NCBI GenBank assembly: GCA_004764695.1
Contig: SMSO01000007.1
Location: 1,495,270 to 1,559,269, forward strand
Reading direction: 5' to 3'
Source of the DNA: Schizochytrium sp. TIO01
Lineage: Eukaryota > Protista > Bigyra: Labyrinthulomycetes
DNA length: 64,000 nucleotides
Made by a program: the position numbers and the translations under genes. The notes under the pieces are model-generated. The model saw only the letters and a list, made by a program, of their open reading frames with translations. It searched no databases and was not told where the DNA came from. Shown here piece after piece: positions 28,455 through 54,566 of the stretch. The first letter of the stretch is position 1; each line of letters begins with the position of its first letter.

Positions 28455-29732
28455 TTATTGAGTCAGAAAAGAGGAAATAGACTCCGTACTTAAAGCAGAT
28501 ATGACATTAGACCCTGATCCAGGCAAATTTAGTGCCCTTTCAAGCGCTCGCCGTGCTTCTTGTTGTACTGCCTGCTTTGCCTTAAGACGATCAATGTGTT
28601 CTTGCTCGATTTTTTCAAGCTTATGCAATTTTCGCAAACGTTGCTTCCGTTCAAGCTCCTCCCAAGCAAGCTTTTCCTGAAGATCATGCTGGACTTTTGC
28701 ATGTTTCTCAGCTTCTGCCTGGATTTTGCTTGCTCGAGTAGCCTCACGCATGAGACGAATTTGTTCTCGCTTTTCTGCAACAGCTTCCTCATTTGCAAGT
28801 CGTTGCTTAATAAGAGCTTGGCGCATTTTCTGTTTTGACTTTTTGATTTCACGTGCACGTTCTTTCCGTTCGACTTCCACAAGAGTCTGGGTTCGAGCTT
28901 TACTCACTCGGTGTATCTGATTCTGTAAAGCATTTTTCTCTTTGAATGCGCGACGAGTAGGCTCCAATCGTGTTTCCAGTGGTCCATGCAGCTTTAACTC
29001 TCGGCGCTCCGCACGCCGTTTCTCTACAGCCTTTACATCGTCTTTAGCCTTGCGGATCTTCAACTCCATTTTTGATTCCTCCAGCTGAAGAAGCTTAATT
29101 CTATTCTCAAGCTTTTGACAATCGGTGTCAAGCGTTTTTTTCTGTTTTCGAACCCCAAACAGCCGCTGAATATAAGGTTCCTCTCTCATTTCTAAATCTC
29201 TACTGGACTGCCCTGGCCTGCGAACAAGACGACTCTCACTTGTCTGTGGCCTTCGAACTATTCTAGAGTGTGATTTAGCAGACTTTGTTGAGTGACGTTG
29301 ATTTGGGGTTGTACGTGGCCTTGTTAATGTTAGTGCATAAGATTTATTATAGCTCGATTTTTCCTCTTCAAAGCTGTCGCTGCAATCTTCTGTATTGCTT
29401 GCATAATCGTCCTGGTTGTTATTGTTAACTTCACTATCATTGTCTTCGGCGTCTGTCTCACGAAAATGCCTCGTTGATGATTTTATCTTGTGTTTGCTTT
29501 GAGCAGCAGCGTGACTTTTCTTTTCCTCGTCTAGCAACTCCAAGTTGCGTAGAACGAGAAGGCTTTTAGCGAGACCGAGATCTCCACTGGTATGATCTCC
29601 ATGATCTGTGTCACGGTTACCCTCGTCTCCTTCACGTAACTGCTCCTCAAGACCATCCACAAAATTTGTTTGGGTAAAATCTCTGTGTTCCCCTTGCTGA
29701 GGCCAGTCTACTCCGTCTTTGGAAAGGCTCAT
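28455..29732 (-). CDS. Uncharacterised coiled-coil protein with disordered N-terminus
   Basis: Open frame 28455..29792, first ATG at 29732 (MSLSKDG); K/E/R/Q-rich heptad region QKLENRIKLLQLEESKMELKI...KLEKIEQEHIDRLKAKQAVQQEA. Confidence 0.8.
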   Translation of the reverse strand: MSLSKDGVDWPQQGEHRDFTQTNFVDGLEEQLREGDEGNRDTDHGDHTSGDLGLAKSLLVLRNLELLDEEKKSHAAAQSKHKIKSSTRHFRETDAEDNDSEVNNNNQDDYASNTEDCSDSFEEEKSSYNKSYALTLTRPRTTPNQRHSTKSAKSHSRIVRRPQTSESRLVRRPGQSSRDLEMREEPYIQRLFGVRKQKKTLDTDCQKLENRIKLLQLEESKMELKIRKAKDDVKAVEKRRAERRELKLHGPLETRLEPTRRAFKEKNALQNQIHRVSKARTQTLVEVERKERAREIKKSKQKMRQALIKQRLANEEAVAEKREQIRLMREATRASKIQAEAEKHAKVQHDLQEKLAWEELERKQRLRKLHKLEKIEQEHIDRLKAKQAVQQEARRALERALNLPGSGSNVISALSTESISSFLTQ

Positions 29733-30178
29733 TTCACTGGAGCAGGGGACCTCGGCTGTGACCTCTGACGACCTGCACCCAGTCCTTGTCACTGCAAATG
29801 TGGCAGTATTTGCCGAGCTGAGACTCTGATCCTGTGAAATGACCGCTTAGCTAACACTTGTCACCAGATCGTGCTCGCTCGTTGCCCTCACTCTTGTTTC
29901 CTCTCTCTTCTTTCACTCATTTTCATTTTCATTCTTATTATATCTATATAAGAATATCATACAAGACGACTGAAAGGTTCTCGTGAGAACATAACGGATC
30001 TTTTCAAGGTTGTTGAAGAATCTCATGAGACGAAGCAAGTAGAGCCGTACTTAGAATGACACTTAGTGTAGTGATCCTCTGACAAAGTTATACGAATGGA
30101 GATCTGGTGTAGTGAACAAAAAGAGAAATGAAAGACGCAATATTTAAAGAAAACCTGAAGCCTTTGTTGAGCTAAGGT

Positions 30179-31414
30179 ATGGCGATGCAGCAAAGTAAAC
30201 CACATGGCAAGTTTGCACGTACATCGTCTTTATGGGACTTAGACAAAACCGCACATCTTGGGGACAATCATGCGCTTCTGAGCAGACGTCTTGCATGCCG
30301 ACCGGGCGAAGAGCGTGATGCTGCTCTATTAATAGCTGCCCGGAGAGGCGCTGCTGAAGTCGCACGCAAACTTGCAGAAAGTGGGGCAAACCCGAATGTC
30401 AAAGGAGAAAGAGGGCGAACTGCATTACATTTAGCAACTCTTTCAGGGAATGTAGACTGCGTACGAGCAATACTCGAGCAAGGCGCTGATAAGCGAATCA
30501 AAGACGATGCAAAAGCAAGCGCGGCGCACCTTGCTAGAGCAATTGGAAAGCATCGCATTGCAAGCATAATAGAGTCTTGGAGTTCTCCCTATGATGATGA
30601 AGTATTTGGTCTTGGAGATGCCCATCCTCCCGCTGAGCCTAGTGCAGCTTTAGCGACCTGTAATCAAATCAAACTATTAGAAAGTTGTCTAGAGCAAAAA
30701 AAGGCTGCACTTCCTGATCATCATGAGGGGATCGCGCGGACTATGGATAAGCTCGGTAGAGAGTATTTCGCGATAAATAGGATAGAAGATGCTGCAAAAA
30801 TTCAGGAGGAGGCATGTGAGCTCGCATCAGACCCTGATCGTCTTTTTAGATTGGCAAAGTACTCCATGGCATGTCGGAAGCCACTTGTTGCAGTAAATGC
30901 TTGCAGGAAGGCACTCGACATGATTTCAACAGACATTTCTGCCGATTACACCATTCAAAGAGATCTTCTTCAGGCTCTTGCAGCATCTTTTGGTGGTGCT
31001 CAAAATTATGAAGGTCAACTGGAGGCCTACCAGACTAGCATATCATTTATTGAAGCCCATGTTAAAGATAATATGCATCCATCGCTTGTGCGGCCGTTCG
31101 TAGGCCTTGGGCATGCGAATTGTCGCTTGAAAGACCCTGTGAAAGGAGCTGCTGCGTTTGCTCGTGCTTTGCAGATAGCCGATGCCCATCTAAGCCCAAA
31201 TCATCCAGATATCGCAAAGGTTATGCGAGACTTTGCTGACGCGTTAACGGATGCTTATGAATTTGAGAAAGCCCAAGCTCTTTATCGTCGCATCATGGAG
31301 ATCGAGCAAGCAAATGGGTTGGATACGCGCGCAACACATGACCAAATGGCAAGTTGTATCGTGCGCCACCACAAATTTATGAAGCACCGTTTGAAACAGG
31401 TCCGAAAGAAGTAA
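30179..31414 (+). CDS. Ankyrin-repeat + tetratricopeptide-repeat protein
   Basis: Ankyrin motifs ALLIAARRG..VARKLAESGANPN and GRTALHLATLSGNVDCVRAILEQGAD; kinesin-light-chain-type TPRs LPDHHEGIARTMDKLG, HPSLVRPFVGLG and LSPNHPDIAKVMRDFA..A..LYRRIMEI. Confidence 0.9.
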   Translation: MAMQQSKPHGKFARTSSLWDLDKTAHLGDNHALLSRRLACRPGEERDAALLIAARRGAAEVARKLAESGANPNVKGERGRTALHLATLSGNVDCVRAILEQGADKRIKDDAKASAAHLARAIGKHRIASIIESWSSPYDDEVFGLGDAHPPAEPSAALATCNQIKLLESCLEQKKAALPDHHEGIARTMDKLGREYFAINRIEDAAKIQEEACELASDPDRLFRLAKYSMACRKPLVAVNACRKALDMISTDISADYTIQRDLLQALAASFGGAQNYEGQLEAYQTSISFIEAHVKDNMHPSLVRPFVGLGHANCRLKDPVKGAAAFARALQIADAHLSPNHPDIAKVMRDFADALTDAYEFEKAQALYRRIMEIEQANGLDTRATHDQMASCIVRHHKFMKHRLKQVRKK

Positions 31415-31948
31415 CGACTCCTGTAATTCGGATCATTTTAGATTGTTATATTATGCCATTTATATGAATCTCCAATCTATCATACTTGACATCATGTGTT
31501 TAAACAACATTTATGTGCTCGAACCTTGTTGTTTAATATATCGATGACACCTGGAAAAACTTAAAAATCACTGCATAACCCTCTATGTCTATGTCCATGT
31601 ATAGACACAAGAGAGCATTGCAGCAAACTAAGATAGGCATGCACTTTAAGATATCATACATTTCACATACCACTATGCGCCCATATTTGACCAGTCACTG
31701 TCACTTGATTCGGCTAGCTTTAACTTTTTTTCTCTGCACATCAGGGAAGATGAAGACAAAGTAAACAGCTGAAAGCGCACTGGTTTTGTATGAATGGCTT
31801 GCTTGAGGAGTCTCAATTTAGGCAGCTGTATCGGTAGCTAATTACTTAGTAGGTAGTAGGTACGTTATCTACCTAATGATTAATAGTTACTTAGTAATTA
31901 CGCTAAAGTAACCTGGTACCTACCTTACGCACTACTACTATAGAAGAT

Positions 31949-32521
31949 TTGGATGCAACAGCAATGCGTGCGATCTTGAAAAAGTGCGTGTGCATCGCAC
32001 GACCTCGGTTTCTCAATATTTCCTTTACAGGACTCGAAGGTTATGATCATGGCGTGCATATGTCATATAGTATTGTTCGTGTGTTATTAGACTTGTTGCT
32101 ACTTATCACGAACTGGCCATGCGATGCTCATATTTGCGTAGAACGCTCGATTGATTCAGACTCCAAGTGGCTTGCTGCATTGATAAACATCAATCCTGTT
32201 TATCTTCTCCGTGTGTCGCTATATTATTATACCCGCAGATGTGGGGCCGATTTCCCACTGGTACAGAGAATACCTCGTGAACCGGAATTAGCTCCTGTGA
32301 AGCTTTATTCGGATTTTTTGAAGAGAGAGGTGAGAGCGCACGCTTTGCGCCTGCATGTTGCGACTAAATTCTTCCCTTTTGGTCAAAATCCTTATGGCGG
32401 TGAGATGCACAGTGTTGCTCAGTGTTTTCGCGCATGCTCGTACTACAATCGCCACTTTCCAGAAATGTGTGCGTACCTGGGCGGTGAGTTCCCACCTCGT
32501 CCAGCCGATGTAAAAGATTGA
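31949..32521 (+). CDS. Hypothetical protein or terminal exon convergent on the kinase gene; its 3' end lies inside the duplicated unit
   Basis: 190-aa ORF with a TTG start. The 3' half reads like real protein (GADFPLVQRIPREPELAPVKLYSDFLKREV...FPEMCAYLGGEFPPRPADVKD). Possible acceptor cccgcag at ~32237. Confidence 0.35.
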   Translation: MDATAMRAILKKCVCIARPRFLNISFTGLEGYDHGVHMSYSIVRVLLDLLLLITNWPCDAHICVERSIDSDSKWLAALININPVYLLRVSLYYYTRRCGADFPLVQRIPREPELAPVKLYSDFLKREVRAHALRLHVATKFFPFGQNPYGGEMHSVAQCFRACSYYNRHFPEMCAYLGGEFPPRPADVKD

Positions 32522-32595
32522 TTCCAACAAAAACTTAAATCTTAAATGTTAAATGGTAGTTAAACTTTGCTCGTTTGTTTGGGACTTTGTAATTA

Positions 32596-34479
32596 TTATT
32601 CAACAAACGCAAAGAGCCTGTCAAAAGCAGCATTATCACCTGCAATCAACTTGTCACTTGCTCCAACCGTTGCCATGCCAAAGTCAATCACCCTCACCGC
32701 ACCAATGTGGTCTACGACAAAGTTGTTCAACCGAATGTCATTGTGCGCAACGCCGTACTCGTGCACAGCTGACAGTGCTGCACGAGCCTTGTGCTTGATC
32801 TCACTGGTGATCGACGCTTTCGGTAACTGAGAAAGTGCATCTCCGTCGTACGAGACTGCAATCAGTAAATCGTTGAACATGTGCCTTCCACCGAACAAGT
32901 AGAACGGGATGTGAATGCCCATCAGCGGTCGCAGTTCCTCATACACAGCCATTTCATTCTCGAAGCTTGCAATCGCATCCATCTGATACTGTCTAGAGTC
33001 GTTCTTGGGAGTCATAACCTTGGCAACATAATCGACACCGAATAGCACTGTATGCGCCGAGATCGAGTACTGACCCATCGGGTACTGCTTAATGACACCT
33101 TCAAGTCCGCCTCGATACGGGAACTGTTCAACAGTGCACGGTAGCGAGTCTTGGAGAGCTTTGAGCTTCTTGATCATCGATTCATCGTCGTCGCTCGAGG
33201 AAGTGGTAGTATTCATATTCTTGGTAGCACCCTTGTTACCTCTACCCGTGATGCGCTTTGCTGTGTTGACTAGTGAGGAAACAAAACCACCACTATCACC
33301 AGCACTTTTACCGGAAAGCATGTTGTACGAGCCTTTCCATTGCGTCATATCCTTGAGCAGCATACCGTCAACAAATGGAACAGACGTAAAGATCCTTTCT
33401 CGTTCTGCTTCATTCAACTCAAGCTTTGCATTTTGCAACGCGTTCACAATAAAAGCAGCGTATGCAAGCTTGACAGATTCTTCTCCTGTTCCAGTGCCCT
33501 CAAATACCTGCGAAACAAGTAATGTGTTGTTCGGCTCCAGTCTCAGAAACCACGTGCGATCCGTCGTACTCAAGACACCGTAGCGGACGCACATACGGAG
33601 CATGTACACATAAACCTGTACAATAGGCGACCTGAAGTCTCTAATTTCGGCGTCCTTGTACTTGGGTGTCGTGAAGTGATACCAGTAATCCTTTAGATCA
33701 TCATGCACGTGATGAAGAACTTGTTCTTGGAGAACTTCTTGAACATTTACGTTTTCTTCAGATGCGATTTCTTCAGCTTCTTCGACAACGTCAGCTCGTT
33801 TGACGGAGTTGGGAAATTTAGCACAGGCTTTGTGTTCGTGCACAATTATAGCGTATCGCTCCCCGGGGCCCGTTGCTCGCATACCACAGTGCACGTCTGT
33901 ACTGTCGTTGGTGGCATCAGGATTAGCTGCTCTAGCGATCGTCCAATCAGTTCGAAAACCACTATGCGCGTCTTCAACGAAAAATTCCAGACCATAACGC
34001 CTGAATTCGTCGTGTGGACGAACGACCCACTGCATGAATGGATCAAGGAAATTGATGTTAAATCTATCTACACAAAATCTTTCATTCGGCAGACTCTGAA
34101 CACCTTCTGTTACGTAAGCTAAGAAAAAAATCTCAGGAACTTGTCCGTTCAGGAGATTCTCTTCACCATCCATGATTTCTTCGATTCTCATATCTTCGTT
34201 GAAGGTACCCCATCGTTCCACCGCAGAGGGTACTAGGTTAAACTTTGCCTGAGCACTAGCTGCCGGTGGGTTGGCATCTGGGAGGCGTCGAGTCGAACTA
34301 CTAACAGCTGCAGACTGACCGTAATCATGTGTCGTACCTTCATGAGCCTGTGCTGAGGCCTCTATAGACTGTAGCTCGGAGGATGCGCTTGGATTCCAAA
34401 GTGTTATCAGCATATCAGAGATAAGCCGATACTTACACAGCGCCACGTGTGCCGGTACGGTCGGTGTGCCACCGTACAT
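32596..34479 (-). CDS. PD-(D/E)xK restriction-endonuclease-fold domain fused to a minimal protein kinase domain (Crinkler-like REase-kinase), copy 1
   Basis: REase-like motifs GFRTDWTI...IIVHEHK...IVQVYVYM...RYGVLST..TWFL; kinase motifs YVAK, FENEMAVYEEL, VHEYGVAHNDIRLNN and VRVIDFGMA. The protein ends about 25 aa after DFG. Confidence 0.85.
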   Translation of the reverse strand: MYGGTPTVPAHVALCKYRLISDMLITLWNPSASSELQSIEASAQAHEGTTHDYGQSAAVSSSTRRLPDANPPAASAQAKFNLVPSAVERWGTFNEDMRIEEIMDGEENLLNGQVPEIFFLAYVTEGVQSLPNERFCVDRFNINFLDPFMQWVVRPHDEFRRYGLEFFVEDAHSGFRTDWTIARAANPDATNDSTDVHCGMRATGPGERYAIIVHEHKACAKFPNSVKRADVVEEAEEIASEENVNVQEVLQEQVLHHVHDDLKDYWYHFTTPKYKDAEIRDFRSPIVQVYVYMLRMCVRYGVLSTTDRTWFLRLEPNNTLLVSQVFEGTGTGEESVKLAYAAFIVNALQNAKLELNEAERERIFTSVPFVDGMLLKDMTQWKGSYNMLSGKSAGDSGGFVSSLVNTAKRITGRGNKGATKNMNTTTSSSDDDESMIKKLKALQDSLPCTVEQFPYRGGLEGVIKQYPMGQYSISAHTVLFGVDYVAKVMTPKNDSRQYQMDAIASFENEMAVYEELRPLMGIHIPFYLFGGRHMFNDLLIAVSYDGDALSQLPKASITSEIKHKARAALSAVHEYGVAHNDIRLNNFVVDHIGAVRVIDFGMATVGASDKLIAGDNAAFDRLFAFVE

Positions 34480-34567
34480 TGCTCCTAACCTGACTCAACT
34501 CAACTCTGCACGTGATTCCCAAATTGAGGCTTTGCTTGCTCTTCTTTCTGCTTCGTGTTCACGTCAC

Positions 34568-34635
34568 GTTGCGCTACGCTTTTGCATCGGTGTTGCGCTA
34601 CGCTTTTGCATCGGTGTTGCGCTACGCTTTTTTTG
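34568..34635. promoter_or_regulatory. Three tandem ~24-bp repeats (GTTGCGCTACGCTTTTGCATCGGT) just upstream of kinase copy 1
   Basis: gttgcgctacgctttt occurs three times at 24-bp spacing; the paralogous site at ~36922-36963 has two copies. A regulatory role is inferred from position only. Confidence 0.55.
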
Positions 34636-34921
34636 GTCTGTGTGCATTCCCCTTAATCTGCATGACTCATTGCAGTGTTTCATTCCTCTTACTCTATAGT
34701 CTAAGTAGACTTTATATCTCTTCTGTTAGCTTTTTTTTCTTTTTTTTTTTCATGTGGAATATGCAGTTGCTTAATTTACTTTCCGGAAATGTGTGCGTAC
34801 CTGGTGGGGGTGAGTTCCCACCTCGTCCCGACGATTTGAAAGATTGATTCCAACAAAAACTTAAATCTTAAATGTTAAATGGTAGTTAAACTTTGCACGT
34901 TTGTTTGGGACTTTGTAATTA

Positions 34922-36808
34922 TTACTCAACAAACGCAAAGAGCTTGTCAAAAGCAGCATTATCATCTGCAATCATCTTGTCACTTGCTCCAACCGTTGCC
35001 ATGCCGAAGTCAATCACCCTCACCTCTTCAATGTGGTCTACGACAAAATTGTTCAACCGAATGTCATTGTGCGCAACACCATACTCGTGCACAGCTGAAA
35101 GTGCTACACGCGCCTTGTGCTTGATCTCACTGGTGATTGACGCTTTCGGTAACTGAGAAAGTGCATCACCGTGGTACGAGACTGCAATCAGTAAATCGTT
35201 GAACATGTGCCGTCCACCGAACAAGTAGAACGGGATGTGAATGCCCATCAGCGGTCGCAGTTCCTCATACACAGCCATTTCATTCTCGAAGCTTGCAATC
35301 GCATCCATCTTATACTGTCTAGAGTCGTTCTTGGGAGTCATAACTTTGGCAACATAATCGAGACCGAATGTCACTGTATGTGCCGAGATCGAGTACTGAC
35401 CCATCGGGTACTGCTTAACGACACCTCCAAGTCCGCCTCGATACGGGAACTGTTCAGCAGTGCACGGTAGCGAGTCTTGGAGAGCTTTCAGCTTCTTGAT
35501 CATCGATTCATCGCCGTCGCTCGTGGAAGTGGTAGTATTCATATTCTGGGTAGCACCCTTATTACCTCTACCTGTGATGCGCTTTGCTGCTTTGACCACT
35601 GAGGAAACAAAACTACTACTACCACCAGCACTTTTGCCGGAAAACATGTTGTACGAGTCTTGCCATTGGGTCATATCCTTGAGCAGCTTACCGTCAACAA
35701 ATGGAACAGAAGTGAAGATCTTTTCTCGTTCCACATCATTCAAATCAAGCTTTGCATTTTTCAACGCGTTCACAATAAAAGCAGCGTATGCAAGCTTGAC
35801 AGATTTTTCTCCTTTTTCAGTGCCATAAAACACCTGCGAAACAAGTAATGTGTTGTCTGGCTCCAGTCTCAGAAACCACGTGCGATCCGTCGTACTCAAG
35901 ACACCGTAGCGGACGCACATACGGAGCATGTGCACATAAACCTGTACAATAGGCGACCTGAAGTCTTTAATTTGGGCGTCCTCGTACTCTTCGACTTCCG
36001 TGAAGTGATACCAGTAATCCTTTAGATCATCATGCACGTGATCAAGAACAATTGGTTGGAGAACTTCTTGAACATTTACGTTTTCTTCAGATGCGATTTC
36101 TTCAGCTTTTTTGAGAACGTCAGCTCGTTTGACGGAGTTGGGAAATTTAGCACAGGCTTTGTGCTCGTGCACAATTATAGCGTATCGCGTACTGGGGCCC
36201 GTTGCTGGCATACCACAGTGCACGTCCACTTTGTCGTTGGGGTCATCAGGCTTAGCTTCTCTAGCGATCGTCCAATCAGTTCGAAAACCACTATGCGCGT
36301 CTTCAACGAAAAATTCCACACCATAACAATTGAATTCCTCGTTTGTATGAACAATATCACCTAAGAACGGATAAACGAATGAAGCGTGCATTACAGATGC
36401 ACAAAATGTTTCATTCGGCGTATTAGCATATCTTTCTGTATTGAAAGCACGGAACAAAACGTTTAAAACTTCTCCATTCAGGAGCCCCTCTTGACCATCC
36501 ATGATTTCTTCGATCCTCATTTCTTGGTTGAAGGTACCCCATCGTTCCACCGCAGAGGGTACTAGGTTAAACTTTGACTGAGCGCTAGCTGCCGGTGGAT
36601 TGGCATCTGTGAGGCGTTGAGTCGCACTACTAACAGCTGCAGACTCACCGTAATCATGAGTCGTACCTTCATGAGCCTGTGCTGAGGCCTCTATAGACTG
36701 TATCTCGGAGGATGCGCTTGGATTCCAAAGTGTTATCAGCATACGATCAATAAGCGGAAACTGACACAACGCCTTGTGTGCCGGTAGGAGCTCTACGTTG
36801 TACGACAT
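34922..36808 (-). CDS. PD-(D/E)xK REase-fold + protein kinase (Crinkler-like), copy 2
   Basis: Same motifs as copy 1 (RTDW, VHEHK, QVYVHM, YGVLST; VAK, HNDIRLNN, DFG); intact 628-aa ORF. Confidence 0.85.
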   Translation of the reverse strand: MSYNVELLPAHKALCQFPLIDRMLITLWNPSASSEIQSIEASAQAHEGTTHDYGESAAVSSATQRLTDANPPAASAQSKFNLVPSAVERWGTFNQEMRIEEIMDGQEGLLNGEVLNVLFRAFNTERYANTPNETFCASVMHASFVYPFLGDIVHTNEEFNCYGVEFFVEDAHSGFRTDWTIAREAKPDDPNDKVDVHCGMPATGPSTRYAIIVHEHKACAKFPNSVKRADVLKKAEEIASEENVNVQEVLQPIVLDHVHDDLKDYWYHFTEVEEYEDAQIKDFRSPIVQVYVHMLRMCVRYGVLSTTDRTWFLRLEPDNTLLVSQVFYGTEKGEKSVKLAYAAFIVNALKNAKLDLNDVEREKIFTSVPFVDGKLLKDMTQWQDSYNMFSGKSAGGSSSFVSSVVKAAKRITGRGNKGATQNMNTTTSTSDGDESMIKKLKALQDSLPCTAEQFPYRGGLGGVVKQYPMGQYSISAHTVTFGLDYVAKVMTPKNDSRQYKMDAIASFENEMAVYEELRPLMGIHIPFYLFGGRHMFNDLLIAVSYHGDALSQLPKASITSEIKHKARVALSAVHEYGVAHNDIRLNNFVVDHIEEVRVIDFGMATVGASDKMIADDNAAFDKLFAFVE

Positions 36809-37473
36809 TGCTCCTACCCTGACTCATCTCAACACACCCCAATCTGACTCGACTCAACTCTGCTCGCGATTCCCAAATTGAGGCTTTGCTTGCTCTTCTT
36901 TCTGCTTCGTGTTCACGTCACGTTGCGCTACGCTTTTGCCTGGGTGTTGCGCTACGCTTTTTGTCTGTGTGCATTCCCCTTAATCTGCATGATCGATTGC
37001 AGTAATTCCTTCCTCTTACTCTTTAGATTACCACATTCAACTTACATTCCTTATAACCTGTGTATATCCATAACTTATATTCTTCATGATTATACATAAA
37101 CTAGTTATCCCAAATCTATTCCTCTTAGGCTATAGGTGCCCGTTAAACAAGCGTATGTAGTTTATGTTTCCGCTTAGCACGTACTCATTTTAACAACATA
37201 TCATTCCCCGTTACTAGGTAAGGTTTGGGTACGTATAAGTCATTTCAGGGTTTTTGTATACATATTAACTCCTTATTAGGGAACTTGGAAGAACAGGATA
37301 AATGGTTTATAATTTATGGTACTAGTACATATCTATAGGACAGAGAGAGCGCTATATAATTAGAAGGTAGAGTCAGAGTCAGAGTCACTGGACAACGTGA
37401 GAGAGCTGTTGTTATTCTCTTGAAGGCTTGAAGTTTGCCTAGCCCCAAGCTTAATAGTGAATGCAGCTATAAT

Positions 37474-38440
37474 CTATTCGTAGGAGTTTGCATCTTCAAT
37501 TTTAGAGAAGTTGACAGTATCTTGTAAAACATCTTCAAAACTTAACATTTGCAGGTGTAGGTATGTCGCTGCAATGCCTGTCATCAGTAACTTCGAATGA
37601 GATGCGCAACTGGGGGGCAGAAGAGAGCTCAACTTTCCTAGTAGGCTCATGGATGTCTCCTCCAGAGAAGAGACCATCAATCACTGCCATCACGTAGATT
37701 CCACAATTATAAGAGTTCTCTTGCTCGCCATCAACAAATTCAAATTTCCACTCACCCAGGTCAGTTTTGATGTGCAGAACTTCATCAAGCAACCTTTGAT
37801 AATCCTCGAAACAAGCATGACCCAGAAGAGTTTTTCATTGGATCAAACGCAAGTATACGTCTTTGCACAAAATCCACAGTCATGAGATACCAATCCGAAT
37901 TTTTTAAAATCGGGAAAAGGACAAGCTTTACGCCATGAAGAAATTGATCTCACGATGAGCAATTAGACGTAGTATTCCAAAAGCTATAGCCACATCGTGC
38001 ATTAGTCAGCACCTTCAGGCCACCTGTACCCAACTTTTCAAATTACCCGTATCAAATTGTTTTCAAGCCTGTGCAGAGCTGGATATTTGCGAAACCTCTT
38101 TCAATGCATTCCACTATAAATTTTCCTTTTCGTAATCTGTAATCTGTAATGTTTTGGTGTCTGTCCTCGCTTCGTTCACCTCCTCAAATTCCTGTTCAGG
38201 CTCCTCGTCTAGATCTCTTTCAATCCCAATTTGGTCAAGGAAACACTCCAATATACTTAATTCTTCAGCACTTGGATCGACGGTTTCATTTCGAGAACGT
38301 TTTGAACCTGCGCCGCGAGCTTGGCTATTAATTACCTTGGTCTTGATTATCTCTTCTACAGTCTTTCTCACTTTGAAGAAATTTGGGCTTGGAGCTTTTA
38401 CAGTTCAACTCCTCCAATCCAACTCGCATGAGTGACTCGA
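37474..38440 (-). pseudogene. Disrupted Ulp1-like (C48) cysteine protease, probable DNA-transposon relic
   Basis: The minus strand at ~37928-37830 reads KLVLFPILKNSDWYLMTVDFVQRRILAFDPM, matching the Ulp1 'PI...HW.L..vD....I..fDS' pattern with the catalytic His replaced by Asp. In another frame ~37723-37690 reads QENSYNCGIYV (oxyanion Gln and catalytic Cys). Stops and frameshifts separate the segments. Confidence 0.7.
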
Positions 38441-39323
38441 CATCTAGTTTTACTAGCAATATATTAAAAGGCTAGATAGCGAACTCTCAGCTCAGTGGAG
38501 TGTGAGAGAGCTAAATCACAGTGACGTAAGAGGCATAGAAAGCTTTTCTTAGACAGAAAATGAAATTCAAAAACCTTGAAATGAAATTCAACTTTTTAAC
38601 TTTTCTCTCTAAACCCGACTGAGACTTTTAGTTACTGTGTTACATAGAGGCAGAAGTAATTTTATAGGCACTAAAAATAAAATTACCAATTTTTAATCAA
38701 AAAATCATGAGGTACACATGCTATGTGTCCCCTCCACAGAATCCATACAAATTTTTTCCGGGATTTGCTTGGCGAATAAATTACATAGCAACTTTTTGTA
38801 TGCCGTGCCTCGCCTGTTCTTTTTCTGTTCTTTTCCCCCTTCCCTGTACAAAAAACACCCCCCTGACGGGGATCTATGCAAAATTTACCGCAAAAGCTAA
38901 CCACCGTGGGGTGTATTTGAGCGAGCGCTCAAGAGGCAGTCCAATGTCTTCACGAGTTTCTTGAGAACGAGGGACCAAATCGACATCAGGATCTCCCTGT
39001 TGTGCCATCCCCACGTAGCGACCCTCAAGGCCGCTTGTACTTAAAGGCTGTGGCCTAGGATTGCTGCAGTTTTCGTCAGTCACAGTTTCACTTGGGCGGC
39101 TGGCTTAGCTTGCTCGGAGTATTTGGAGATCAAGTACTCTGTTCTGTCTTTAGTTGGAGGATAACCTAACGACCTGCTTCATCAAAGCATCGTTGACCTT
39201 TGCAAAGCACGTTCAACGTACTCTCAGCTTAGAGTGAGAGTGAAGATTTTTGTGACTTACCTGATTGGTTGGACCTGGGTTTTGCACAGAGTTTGGCCGC
39301 GTTAAAAATATAGCAGAACCACG

Positions 39324-40769
39324 ATGGAGGTCAGTGTTCCTGCTGCTCTGCAGCGCTCAAGTAAGAATAACCCAGAGGAGGATGGCATGGACGTAGACCA
39401 TGAAGGTCCTTTGGCTCGTGATACAAGCGAATGCAAATACACATATAATCGATTTGTGCTGCCTCAAGTTCGAAAGTTCACCGCACAATACTCCCATGTG
39501 TACCAGAAACGCATGACTGCTCTCAAACCGGTGGTGAAACGCGAGGCCCAGCGCCTCTGGGGTGAAGTAGCCTTTGTAGATCGAGTGATTGATCTTGATT
39601 CCTCAAGGCCCACCTGCGTTTTAGTAGGAACTCTTTATAAGATCCAGCAGCTGAAACCTTCGGTGCTTGATGAATTTGCTTCTGAGTTTAGTGGCAAAGC
39701 AACTGCACCCACACTTGACAACTTTTGTTCTGATGAGGATGAATTCGTGCTGGAAGACGAGTCTGGCCGTGTGAACCTTGTCGGTCTTGAACAAATGCTG
39801 GTTGATTCTCTTGTGAGCGGTCTCGTTGTTGCTCTTCAGGGCCGTCTTGATGAAGAAGGTCGGTTTGTGGTATCTCGGTATTGTTTTCCTGGCCATGCTG
39901 CCCAGCCTGAACGCCGCTTAGTGAGCAGCAAGCCAGAGAAGCAACGCTTTCTCATGCTTGTGAGTGGTTTGCGCATGGGTGCAGGATTCGATTCTCTTCC
40001 CTTCCAGCTGTTGACCGAGTACATTTGTGGCCACATCGGCAACTCTGCAGACCATAATCTTGAATCTGAAATTGTTCGCGTTGTTATTGCAGGTAGCTCC
40101 GTCGACATTCCAGAGGAGATGAAAACAAAGGATGATGCCACTGGGTCAAAGGAGAGAAAGTTCGGAAAGTCACGTGGAACTAACCAACTGGTTGAACCTA
40201 TCAAGCAGCTTGATTGTGCCCTTGCGGAGATCGCGTCGAGTATCTGTGTTGATGTCATCCCTGGACCTAGCGATCCTGTTAATGTAACAATGCCTCAGCA
40301 ACCACTTCACAAGTGTTTGTTTCCCCACGCTGGTCGTTTTCAGTCTTCTTTTAAGCTTACAACCAACCCTTACGAATGTGTTTTGGAGGAGGATGTCTTA
40401 GTTCTAGGTCACGGTGGCCAGCCAGTTCTTGACATGCTCATGTACACTCGTAATCGTTCTCCTGTAGACCTTATGGAGGAAACACTTCAATGGCGCCATA
40501 TTGCTCCTACCGCTCCGGATACTCTTCCTTGCTACCCGCTCACATCAATTGATCCCTTTGTCATGCAGGAGCGGCCCCATCTTTACTTTTGTGGTAACCA
40601 GACAGCATTCGAGCAACGTCTGGTTCAGAGTGAGCATGGTGGATTTACTCGTGTTGTTGCCGTGCCTGAATTCTCAAAGACAGGTCAAGTCGTTCTTGTG
40701 GACCTCAACTCTGAACGTCTTGAATGCACAACTATTCAGTTCGATGGACTTGATTCGTCGTCAGAGTAA
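39324..40769 (+). CDS. POLD2: DNA polymerase delta small subunit (POLD2/Pol31)
   Basis: QYSHVYQKRM, GTLYK..LKPSVLDE, LEDESGRVNL, LVSGL, IVRVVIAGSS, PGPSDP.N..MPQQPLH, TNPY, GQPVLDM, WRHIAPTAPDTL.CYP...DPF....PHLYFCGNQ, VPEFSKTG. Confidence 0.97.
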   Translation: MEVSVPAALQRSSKNNPEEDGMDVDHEGPLARDTSECKYTYNRFVLPQVRKFTAQYSHVYQKRMTALKPVVKREAQRLWGEVAFVDRVIDLDSSRPTCVLVGTLYKIQQLKPSVLDEFASEFSGKATAPTLDNFCSDEDEFVLEDESGRVNLVGLEQMLVDSLVSGLVVALQGRLDEEGRFVVSRYCFPGHAAQPERRLVSSKPEKQRFLMLVSGLRMGAGFDSLPFQLLTEYICGHIGNSADHNLESEIVRVVIAGSSVDIPEEMKTKDDATGSKERKFGKSRGTNQLVEPIKQLDCALAEIASSICVDVIPGPSDPVNVTMPQQPLHKCLFPHAGRFQSSFKLTTNPYECVLEEDVLVLGHGGQPVLDMLMYTRNRSPVDLMEETLQWRHIAPTAPDTLPCYPLTSIDPFVMQERPHLYFCGNQTAFEQRLVQSEHGGFTRVVAVPEFSKTGQVVLVDLNSERLECTTIQFDGLDSSSE

Positions 40770-41110
40770 GCCTCTCCGAAATGGAAAACAGCAAATGCCT
40801 TTGATTTTACTTTCTCACTGTGCCACTTTCACATCTAAACGCTGAACTATGTATAGCAACATACTATATCTTGACTGGTATTGAGATTGAGAAGCAGGCA
40901 CTCCTAATGCCTCAATCTAAAGGAGAGGAATGATTTATCTGAAGAACGAAGTTAAAAAAAAAACTTAGGATATTATGAGAAAAAAAGGAAACGTCTTACG
41001 CAAAAATGTTTAAATGGTTTACATTTGTCTGGCCTTAAGTTTGGCTGCGCCTAGCACTAAAATATTAAAAAAAAAATCTAAAAGTAGAAGAGGTAGGGTC
41101 TACTTTATTA

Positions 41111-53075: not shown

Positions 53076-54216
53076 TTTCCCGCACTTGCTGTTCTACACA
53101 AATCTACTCGCTCCTCTCCAGCGCAGTCTCTCTTCCAGGCCTCCGAACACGCTCTACCTCGTGCACGCTCTCGCACCAAGTCCGCAACCACCGCAAACCA
53201 GCAACGCAGTCACGATCTCTCAACAGACAGATGGATACAGTTCTGTTGCGAGCAAGATACGAAATGTACTACCTGCTTCTATTACTTCACGAGCAACTCA
53301 GTCAAAGAAGCTTCTCCTGCTTTTCCACTACAGTGACTAAGCCACTCTTATGCTCTCTGTCTCTTCGTATGTTCCCTAAAACTCAAATTAAAAATTCAAA
53401 TTCAAGCACTCCAGCGGCCGAGCTCCGGTGCGGGCTTCTCGGCTCGTGCGGGCGGCGGCGGCTACCTTTGGGGCGCTGCCAGCGTCTTCCTGTCGGTATC
53501 CCGGGTGCTCGTGCGTGTGGTGCGTCCGTCTGGCGCTCTGATTATCTCGCTTCGCGTGAATGAATCGCGAGAACAGTTGAGGTTTTGCTGCTCTGGTTTT
53601 GGTCTTCTTTGCACGAAATGCGCTTTTTCTGTCTTTCCTTTCCTTTCTTCACCTTTTCTTCGCCTTTTCTTTCTTTGCAGCCCCTCACCACCCTCACTGA
53701 GCCCACCTCCCCTCATACACCCAAACCCATTCCCCTCTCAATACCCAACTCTCTGTTCCACAAATTTGCTTTCCCCTCTACCCTCCTCTACCACTTCTTC
53801 ACTGTCCTCCTGACGCTTCCTCTCAAACCATCCTGGGAAGGGTATTTACCCCATTTCAAATCTTCCCCCCCCTCTTCTTCCCTCACACCTCCTCTGGGCA
53901 TCTCCGAAGCTCTCGTTCCTTCTCTTCAATTACGCGCCTCCCAAGGACAGATTGTATAAGTCCCACTGTGGGCAGTCGTCTTTCGGATTTTTCCTATTAC
54001 TATCCAAAGTGGCGTGTAGTATATATATAACCTAAACTCTAGCACTTGCATTTGTGCTTGCTTTATTGTACGTAATAGGTAGCTCGGTAGTAGCTGCCTA
54101 AGCAATTGCTAGCGAGAGTGAAGAGACTGCCCCGGGGGGGGGGGTATCAGGGAAAAGGTTAGGAGGGCGTATAGAGTGGAGCCCGCTTCGGGTGCTGGGT
54201 CTTTCAATGAAAGCGC

Positions 54217-54566
54217 TTTCTTTCTTTCTCTCTTTCTCTCTTTCTCTCTTTCTCTCTTTCTCTCTTTCTCTCTTTCTCTCTTTCTCTCTTTCTCTCTTTC
54301 TCTCTTTCTCTCTTTCTCTCTTTCTCTCTTTCTCTCTTTCTCTCTTTCTCTCTTTCTCTCTTTCTCTCTTTCTCTCTTTCTCTCTTTCTCTCTTTCTCTC
54401 TTTCTCTCTTTCTCTCTTTCTCTCTTTCTCTCTTTCTCTCTTTCTCTCTTTCTCTCTTTCTCTCTTTCTCTCTTTCTCTCTTTCTCTCTTTCTCTCTTTC
54501 TCTCTTTCTCTCTTTCTCTCTTTCTCTCTTTCTCTCTTTCTCTCTTTCTCTCTTTCTCTCTTTCTT
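54217..54566. repeat. Perfect (TTTCTCTC)n polypyrimidine microsatellite, roughly 42 units
   Basis: Strict 8-bp periodicity over ~340 bp; it produces the spurious FLSFSLSL and KERKRERE ORFs. Confidence 0.97.

Follow-up and report, generated by a model that had tools for sequence, protein, structure and literature searches.

Why would a thraustochytrid keep, side by side, two diverged copies of a gene that joins a predicted nuclease to a kinase, on a segment of DNA that is missing from the same site in another strain? The question is raised by a locus of Schizochytrium sp. TIO01 within a 64,000-nucleotide stretch of contig SMSO01000007.1 (positions 1,495,270 to 1,559,269 of the forward strand; hereafter the window, whose own coordinates are used throughout), which is eukaryotic, gene-dense DNA. 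A first-pass annotation made from the letters alone had described an accessory island here, with a convergent orphan open reading frame (ORF), two intact intronless paralogues and a broken Ulp1-like protease lying between an ankyrin-TPR gene and POLD2, and all of these parts were found. Our reading, to which we assign a probability of about one half, is that the cassette is a poison and antidote in a single protein, a self-guarded nuclease-kinase that would act in the manner of the fungal SPOK proteins and that sits on an insertion absent from one of four strains. The nuclease is intact and diversifying, the kinase is conserved, an export signal is lacking and the insertion is polymorphic, and a self-guarded poison therefore fits best.

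Predicted nuclease and kinase domains

Both paralogues are uninterrupted ORFs on the minus strand, 82% identical to each other: paralogue 1 (P0001) encodes 627 amino acids (aa) at 32596..34479 and paralogue 2 (P0002) 628 aa at 34922..36808. In P0001, a PD-(D/E)xK nuclease domain is assigned to approximately residues 80-352 (33424..34242, minus strand) from a structural model, fold matches and retained residues. Its motifs read as originally annotated, namely T177-D178, E215-H-K217, Q288-xxx-Y292 and Y300GVLST. When residues 1-355 were modelled alone, the predicted structure best matched the nuclease domains of type IIG and type I restriction enzymes, including BpuSI (Z 10.6, root-mean-square deviation (rmsd) 2.9, 141 aligned), DrdV (Z 9.2) and V. 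vulnificus HsdR (Z 7.8), which bears out the restriction endonuclease (REase) fold first proposed for this middle domain. Two mitoribosomal chains also match, with Z 9.8 and 8.8 at higher rmsd, and the remaining matches are mostly PD-(D/E)xK enzymes. A Foldseek search with the nuclease domain gave nothing at E 0.001, and its top match was BpuSI at E 0.018. Residues E133, D178, E215 and K217 and the QxxxY pair are retained in both paralogues. Across a 97-sequence family alignment, with conservation counted over the rows having a residue at the position concerned, the catalytic and QxxxY residues are kept in 86-95% of rows (E133 in 72 of 78, D178 in 78 of 83, E215 in 82 of 89, K217 in 77 of 90, Q288 in 89 of 94 and Y292 in 87 of 94). 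We predict that the domain is a PD-(D/E)xK nuclease with all of its catalytic residues.

The compact kinase domain of P0001 lies at approximately residues 445-627 (32599..33147, minus strand) and keeps K487, E509, the H579-x-D581 pair, N586 and D599; the kinase aspartate D581 is kept in 88 of 92 family rows. Its fold scores Z ~14 against the RNase L, Rio2 and BRAF kinases, all tied. The domain ends 26 residues past the DFG motif, and the first-pass annotation had accordingly called it truncated. That description fails: the median tail is 26.5 residues among 78 relatives with both domains and a readable kinase motif (drawn from the best 150 of 563 representatives at E 0.001, 95 of which share the upstream domain), and the kinase of a 39%-identical relative stops at the matching position, so the short tail is a family trait. 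An AlphaFold2 model of the whole protein, built with the 97 sequences, has a predicted template-modelling score (pTM) of 0.80; residues 1-30 are confident and include a short helix, residues 34-79 are disordered, and there is no long high-confidence N-terminal helix. Searches with the whole-protein fold gave kinases only, a sequence search of the PDB was dominated by kinases, and PADLOC matches were confined to the generic kinase core.

Divergence between paralogues and alleles

The ratio of nonsynonymous to synonymous divergence (dN/dS) between P0001 and P0002 is 1.51 over residues 1-355 and 0.38 over residues 356-627, the latter value placing the kinase half under purifying selection. Differences are concentrated in a hypervariable block around the first catalytic helix (residues 108-165; 33985..34158 on the minus strand in P0001), where 35 of 58 residues differ between the paralogues and dN/dS is 1.76 (Fisher p 0.002 versus the kinase, for a block picked after inspecting the alignment). 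Residues 166-183, around D178, are identical in both. Compared with P0001, a third allele (P0004) has 34 changed residues among the 58 of the block and just 3 among 197 of the kinase, and the distant pair P0005 and P0009 is also most different in the block (10 of 58 residues, against 4 of 197 kinase residues). Two further proteins, P0007 and P0008, are mosaics that combine the P0002 block with a P0004-like or P0001-like rear half. The nuclease half diversifies and appears to swap blocks among alleles.

Relationship to SPOK and Crinkler proteins

The closest tested analogue of this design, missed by the first-pass annotation, is SPOK. SPOK3 has an HsdR-like PD-(D/E)xK domain with a QxxxY motif followed by a C-terminal kinase; its best HHpred match is V. 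vulnificus HsdR, its killing activity requires the nuclease lysine, and resistance requires the kinase aspartate together with a cysteine cluster (PMC6660238). The killing by SPOK1 in E. coli and yeast is directed at DNA (PMC9972908). The Fusarium homologues are toxin-antidotes that have been proposed to act in vegetative growth too, and the paper describing them ties the nuclease-kinase architecture to Zhang et al. (PMC12693581). Spok3 and Spok4 are found together in one transposon, with gene conversion (PMC6660238, PMC12693581). The window proteins share with Podospora Spok1-4 and the Fusarium FuSpoks the order of an HsdR-type PD-(D/E)xK domain with QxxxY and a C-terminal kinase with its catalytic aspartate, and there is a likeness of setting as well, in that paralogues lie together on a transposon, exchange sequence and are present or absent among strains. 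They differ in having a shorter N-terminus, in a host that is a stramenopile and not an ascomycete, and in a carrier that is a 7-kb composite with a Ulp1 relic rather than a Starship of roughly 110 kb. In the ESM Atlas, the SPOK2_N cluster was matched at 0.93 with 197 of 256 shared features, at rank 11 of 30, below unnamed fungal clusters.

The kinship with Crinkler-type REase-kinase proteins that had been suggested for the paralogues is upheld by their relatives. Seven of the 97 aligned family proteins bear the Crinkler header PF20147; they belong to Mortierellomycota and Glomeromycota fungi, they have the same short tail after DFG as the window proteins, and they also match a nuclease-region profile that was iterated on a pre-selected set. 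The body of the window proteins is therefore of the Crinkler/RHS (CR) type, homologous in its nuclease and kinase to the REase+kinase bodies of CR proteins (CRN8 type; Zhang et al., 2016, via PMC5289972), a combination that makes up about one sixth of CR C-termini (PMC5289972). Where they differ from CR proteins is in lacking the ubiquitin-like LxLFLAK header and in sitting on a polymorphic insertion. As the first annotation had observed of the header, neither PF20147 nor the LxLFLAK motif is present in P0001 or P0002, and a hydropathy scan of their first 60 residues found a best 11-residue value of just 1.2-1.4, which is not strongly hydrophobic; for these reasons we do not file them as Crinkler effectors. 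A precedent for a headerless gene of this ancestry, with a different enzyme, exists in AACRNL, a Crinkler-like selfish gene of free-living eukaryotes whose targeting header has disappeared and which neighbouring DNA transposons copy; AACRNL is an ADP-ribosyltransferase, whereas the window gene is a nuclease-kinase in a protist (PMC12957317).

The nearest named relatives of the REase-kinase are from another thraustochytrid, Hondaea fermentalgiana. In a quick tree search on 79 of the 97 rows (18 were left out as fragments), the window proteins and one Hondaea protein form a separate branch with a Shimodaira-Hasegawa-like approximate likelihood ratio (SH-aLRT) support of 99, and they do not cluster with the header-bearing rows. 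No relatives were found among viral contigs or Joint Genome Institute (JGI) metagenome contigs. Family members do occur in transcriptome sets (P0006, P0009, P0016 and P0020). P0016 and P0020 are short transcript-derived relatives, of 173 and 104 aa, that are limited to either the N-terminal part or the kinase end and are possibly decayed copies or antidote-only forms. In P0014 and P0023 (both Hondaea) and P0031 (labelled Durusdinium), the REase-kinase body is fused behind unrelated parts, among them a second kinase and esterase, Dam-like and TM2 domains. Such fusions may have arisen in gene modelling where the body has inserted, and would then be consistent with mobility in other species too.

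The insertion and its transposon-like unit

Contigs of four public runs (X1, X3, X5 and X13, from four studies) were compared with positions 29500-41000. X1, X3 and X5, one of which may be the source of the window itself, have contigs that cross the left junction and contigs that lead out of the final 30 bases of the island across the right junction, none of them differing from the window sequence. A contig of X13 joins 30893-31927 directly to 38889-41000, at a depth of 320.6 that equals flank depth. The empty site that the first-pass annotation had proposed to look for between the ankyrin-TPR gene and POLD2 is thus found in one of the four runs, and it defines an insertion of ~6.96 kb at 31932..38889. 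The location first annotated (31949..38440) was right and its limits were not, the island reaching some 450 bases further to the right. The bases CGCA stand at both island ends (31928..31931 and 38889..38892, plus strand) and once in the empty form, and the junction slides over 4 bases; these 3-4 duplicated bases (GCA, if the last base of the element is 38889) are a candidate target-site duplication. Matches of other contigs stop at 31936 and 38889 and give way to different sequence, while unique right-flank contigs start about one word length inside the island end. The breakpoints thus fall on repeat boundaries, a coincidence that we would not expect of a random deletion. The island had been called possibly mobile, and in keeping with this its parts occur at other loci in all four runs, where orphan or kinase sequence of 82-88% identity is found on long contigs of single-copy depth, several of which have the orphan adjoining a kinase gene end. 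Added up over contigs, depth in the orphan and Ulp1 bins reaches 3.9-9.1 times that of the flanks, a rough sign of repeats and not a copy number. A low-complexity stretch rich in TAG and GGTA occupies 31820-31930, immediately to the left of the insertion point; it is kept in the empty allele and is therefore part of the target region.

The association with a transposon remnant was also recovered, the cassette being joined to a Ulp1 unit with inverted ends. Loose contig ends at 37217 (X1 and X13) and 38889 (X1 and X5) independently set the boundaries of a 1,673-bp repeat unit (37217..38889). Its degenerate inverted ends lie at 37217..37256 (plus strand; inner, left) and 38850..38889 (minus strand; outer, and also the right end of the whole insertion), and 23 of the 40 terminal bases match as an inverted repeat. 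The shuffle p is 5e-5 at the best of seven lengths tried and 0.001-0.015 at the others, and the score is equalled at 4 of 63,960 plus-strand positions. Because the two boundaries form a worn inverted repeat, we place the Ulp1 relic in a transposon-type unit, a non-autonomous DNA transposon. The terminal inverted repeats and target-site duplication for which the first annotation had proposed to search were accordingly found in part: the unit has inverted ends and 3-4 duplicated bases flank the island. The unit as such is not bordered by a duplication, the bases preceding 37217 differing from those that follow 38889; what the duplication borders is the whole island.

The relic consists of a broken Ulp1-like (C48) protease domain in two pieces in different frames (37538..37949, minus strand). 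One piece (37788-37949) matches positions 81-119 of the Ulp1 profile PF02902 with E 0.034 and the other (37538-37834) positions 154-213 with E 0.0017; they are co-linear on the minus strand, both fall under Pfam's cut-off, and they are the two that match PF02902 among 35 open pieces of at least 30 aa in 37030-38900. At the place of the catalytic His-Trp motif of Ulp1, the relic has Asp-Trp. No longer relative of the Ulp1 piece was found among 229 candidates, which is weak evidence. An acidic open stretch without a family match lies upstream (38117..38404, minus strand) and is probably the N-terminal part of the relic. Further loose ends common to several runs, at 37358 and 38537 within the unit, suggest subfamilies with internal replacements.

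In enclosing a Ulp1/C48 protease between short inverted ends, the unit resembles the Ulp1-carrying transposons of the Mutator and Ginger1 groups; it differs from them in that no transposase was found in it and in a duplication of 3-4 bases, not the 9 bases typical of Mutator. CACTA elements pair a CACTA end with TAGTG at the other. CACTA does stand at 31930, but the right end has no matching TAGTG, and this assignment was rejected. A Helitron of the HLE1 or HLE2 kind was rejected as well, such elements either running from TC to CTRR and lying between A and T, or else having inverted repeats of 11-18 nt and a terminal stem-loop (PMC11417382): the island ends have neither, inverted matches between them are no more numerous than in shuffles, and their predicted folds give z values of -0.5 to -2.0. 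Ulp1 is known cargo of Mutator and of Ginger1, which has TGTNR ends and a CCGG or CCGT duplication (PMC2836005). Ginger1 itself was set aside since the ends here begin GGTAA and the 3-4 duplicated bases are neither of these.

Interpretation and alternatives

The middle domain, then, models as a REase fold, the gene is neither single-copy nor fixed, and a transposon remnant adjoins it, all of which agrees with what the first annotation had supposed. We read the locus best as a headerless Crinkler-type nuclease-kinase that would work like fungal Spok, carried by a composite DNA transposon. The nuclease would damage DNA wherever the protein is present and the gene is absent, be it in a cell, a nucleus or a zoospore, and the kinase, made where the gene is present, would restrain its own nuclease through autophosphorylation or through a modified shared target. 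Because gene-free cells would be harmed, losing the cassette would be costly and the cassette would be kept or would spread. New blocks at residues 108-165, arising by substitution and by exchange between copies, may give new specificities, which would explain why two diverged copies are kept side by side. In its movement the cassette probably accompanied the neighbouring Ulp1 transposon, using the outer end of that element and a transposase encoded elsewhere. A fuller version of this proposal, in which a SPOK-type poison-antidote exists outside fungi, hitchhikes on a small Ulp1 transposon, has a kinase that does without the cysteine cluster and draws its killing specificities from swaps of the 58-residue block, is one that we put forward tentatively and with more doubt than confidence.

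Several observations weigh against a SPOK-like poison-antidote. The SPOK cluster C-x3-C-x13-C-x5-H-x7-H is absent from all 166 proteins examined, and C448 is the sole cysteine in the region of P0001 before the kinase; on present tests the window protein is therefore not a member of the SPOK family, and we regard it as SPOK-like in design and outside that family. The likeness consists of motifs, fold and a language-model score with no alignment behind it, and 25 of the 30 ESM Atlas matches are unnamed fungal clusters. The dN/dS values are pairwise and do not include significance against 1, the block was chosen post hoc, and synonymous divergence is also higher in the block (0.27 against 0.10), a rise that gene conversion would produce if the donor were diverged. 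The mosaics P0007 and P0008 come from short contigs and could be assembly chimeras, and the empty site is known from one contig of one run. The 35 open pieces of 37030-38900 matched no transposase family at E 0.1 and the left end of the island bears no resemblance to the Ulp1 unit's inverted end, so that we infer the way of movement. REase+kinase proteins are common among Crinkler types, for which other roles have been proposed (PMC5289972), and a limited literature search gave no evidence on sex or heterokaryons in the host.

The main rival is host defence, with the nuclease attacking invading DNA (giant or integrated viruses, transposons) or killing the infected cell, the kinase as its switch, a variable block that tracks changing invaders and a transposon that merely spreads the module. 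This is compatible with most of the same facts: the nuclease half is diversifying, the hydropathy scan saw no secretion signal, and CR proteins that lack a secretion header have been proposed to act against intracellular invasive DNA (PMC5289972). We nonetheless consider it rather unlikely, as the protein has no sensor domain, its PADLOC matches do not extend beyond the generic kinase core, and the nearest experimentally tested architecture is selfish. Since in SPOK, the closest tested analogue, the nuclease kills and the kinase protects, the comparison favours a selfish poison-antidote over the antiviral role that the first-pass annotation had offered as an example. Division of the two functions between genes, the REase-kinase being the toxin and the convergent orphan ORF or its antisense RNA the antidote, seems improbable to us. 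Orphan-like sequence does adjoin the kinase gene end at other loci in three runs (contigs of X1, X3 and X13), and the orphan's middle part is its variable part too. Yet the tandem duplication copied only the last ~20 codons of the orphan, leaving the second paralogue without an orphan of its own; moreover, the two orphan relatives found are 66% identical as protein, where other copies have ~85% DNA identity, which would be near unconstrained drift, and one of them stops early, at 115 aa.

Nor do we think it probable that the nuclease is the element's own mobility enzyme, cutting sites in a homing-like way with the variable block shifting its target. The island yielded neither a DDE transposase nor a recombinase, its left end has no inverted repeat, and NTPase+REase CR bodies have been tied to prokaryotic transposable elements (PMC5289972), all of which this idea would accommodate; against it, the right end of the island is the inverted end of a Ulp1 unit that has copies of its own, which indicates an ordinary transposase acting in trans, and the nuclease is toxic in the REase-kinase proteins that have been tested (PMC6660238, PMC5289972). 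Export as a Crinkler-like effector against prey, hosts or competing microbes would draw on the homology of the body to the 7 of 97 header-bearing proteins, and is very unlikely given the lack of PF20147 and LxLFLAK, the weak N-terminal hydropathy (1.2-1.4), the disorder of residues 34-79 in the model and the position of the window proteins apart from header-bearing rows in the tree. It is just as hard to credit that the cassette is passive cargo, functionless now and copied along by the transposon. The neighbouring Ulp1 gene has decayed and some family members (P0016, P0020) are short or fragmentary, but neither window ORF is interrupted in its 627-628 codons, no catalytic residue has been lost, the kinase half shows purifying selection (dN/dS 0.38) and family members are present in transcriptome sets.

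The nuclease-kinase architecture is already known. What appears new, judged from sequence, is the finding of a nuclease-kinase of SPOK-like design in a host other than a fungus, carried by a precisely bounded insertion that varies among strains and endowed with a nuclease block that can be swapped. Our limited literature search found no report of such an element in thraustochytrids, and Zhang et al. (2016) may already list thraustochytrid members. Open problems in the SPOK field are how a single protein can serve as poison and antidote alike and what determines the specificity of a given copy (PMC12693581). The locus offers a distant, compact natural set in which near-identical kinases accompany very different nuclease blocks, in strains with and without the cassette, and cross-rescue between alleles would show where a SPOK-like specificity lies. 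It would also connect a REase+kinase body of Crinkler type with an insertion whose limits are precise and whose empty site is known, in direct support of the link between transposons and toxins. If the fuller SPOK-type proposal is true, the many headerless REase-kinase genes that await study in microbial eukaryotes could likewise be elements of addiction or drive.

Other features of the locus

The orphan ORF (31964..32521, plus strand) encodes 185 aa and is convergent on paralogue 1, and at other loci too it converges on the end of a kinase gene. It has no match in Pfam, PADLOC or the ESM Atlas, where its recognition score is under the level typical of known families. The cassette is built of two tandem units of ~2.25 kb with 88% nucleotide identity. 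Unit 1 (32454..34699) comprises the orphan 3' end, the gene and its upstream region, and unit 2 (34778..37026) starts with the remnant of the orphan 3' end. A 24-base tandem repeat at 34568-34632 and 36922-36962, ~90-150 bases ahead of the start codon of each REase-kinase gene, has been preserved in both units and is a candidate promoter element. The ankyrin-TPR gene on the left (30179..31414) and POLD2 on the right (39324..40769), both on the plus strand, have single-copy depth. Rfam gave no match. Elsewhere in the window, positions 54216-54565 hold a near-perfect tandem array with a period of 56 bases and ~6 copies that are 99% identical.

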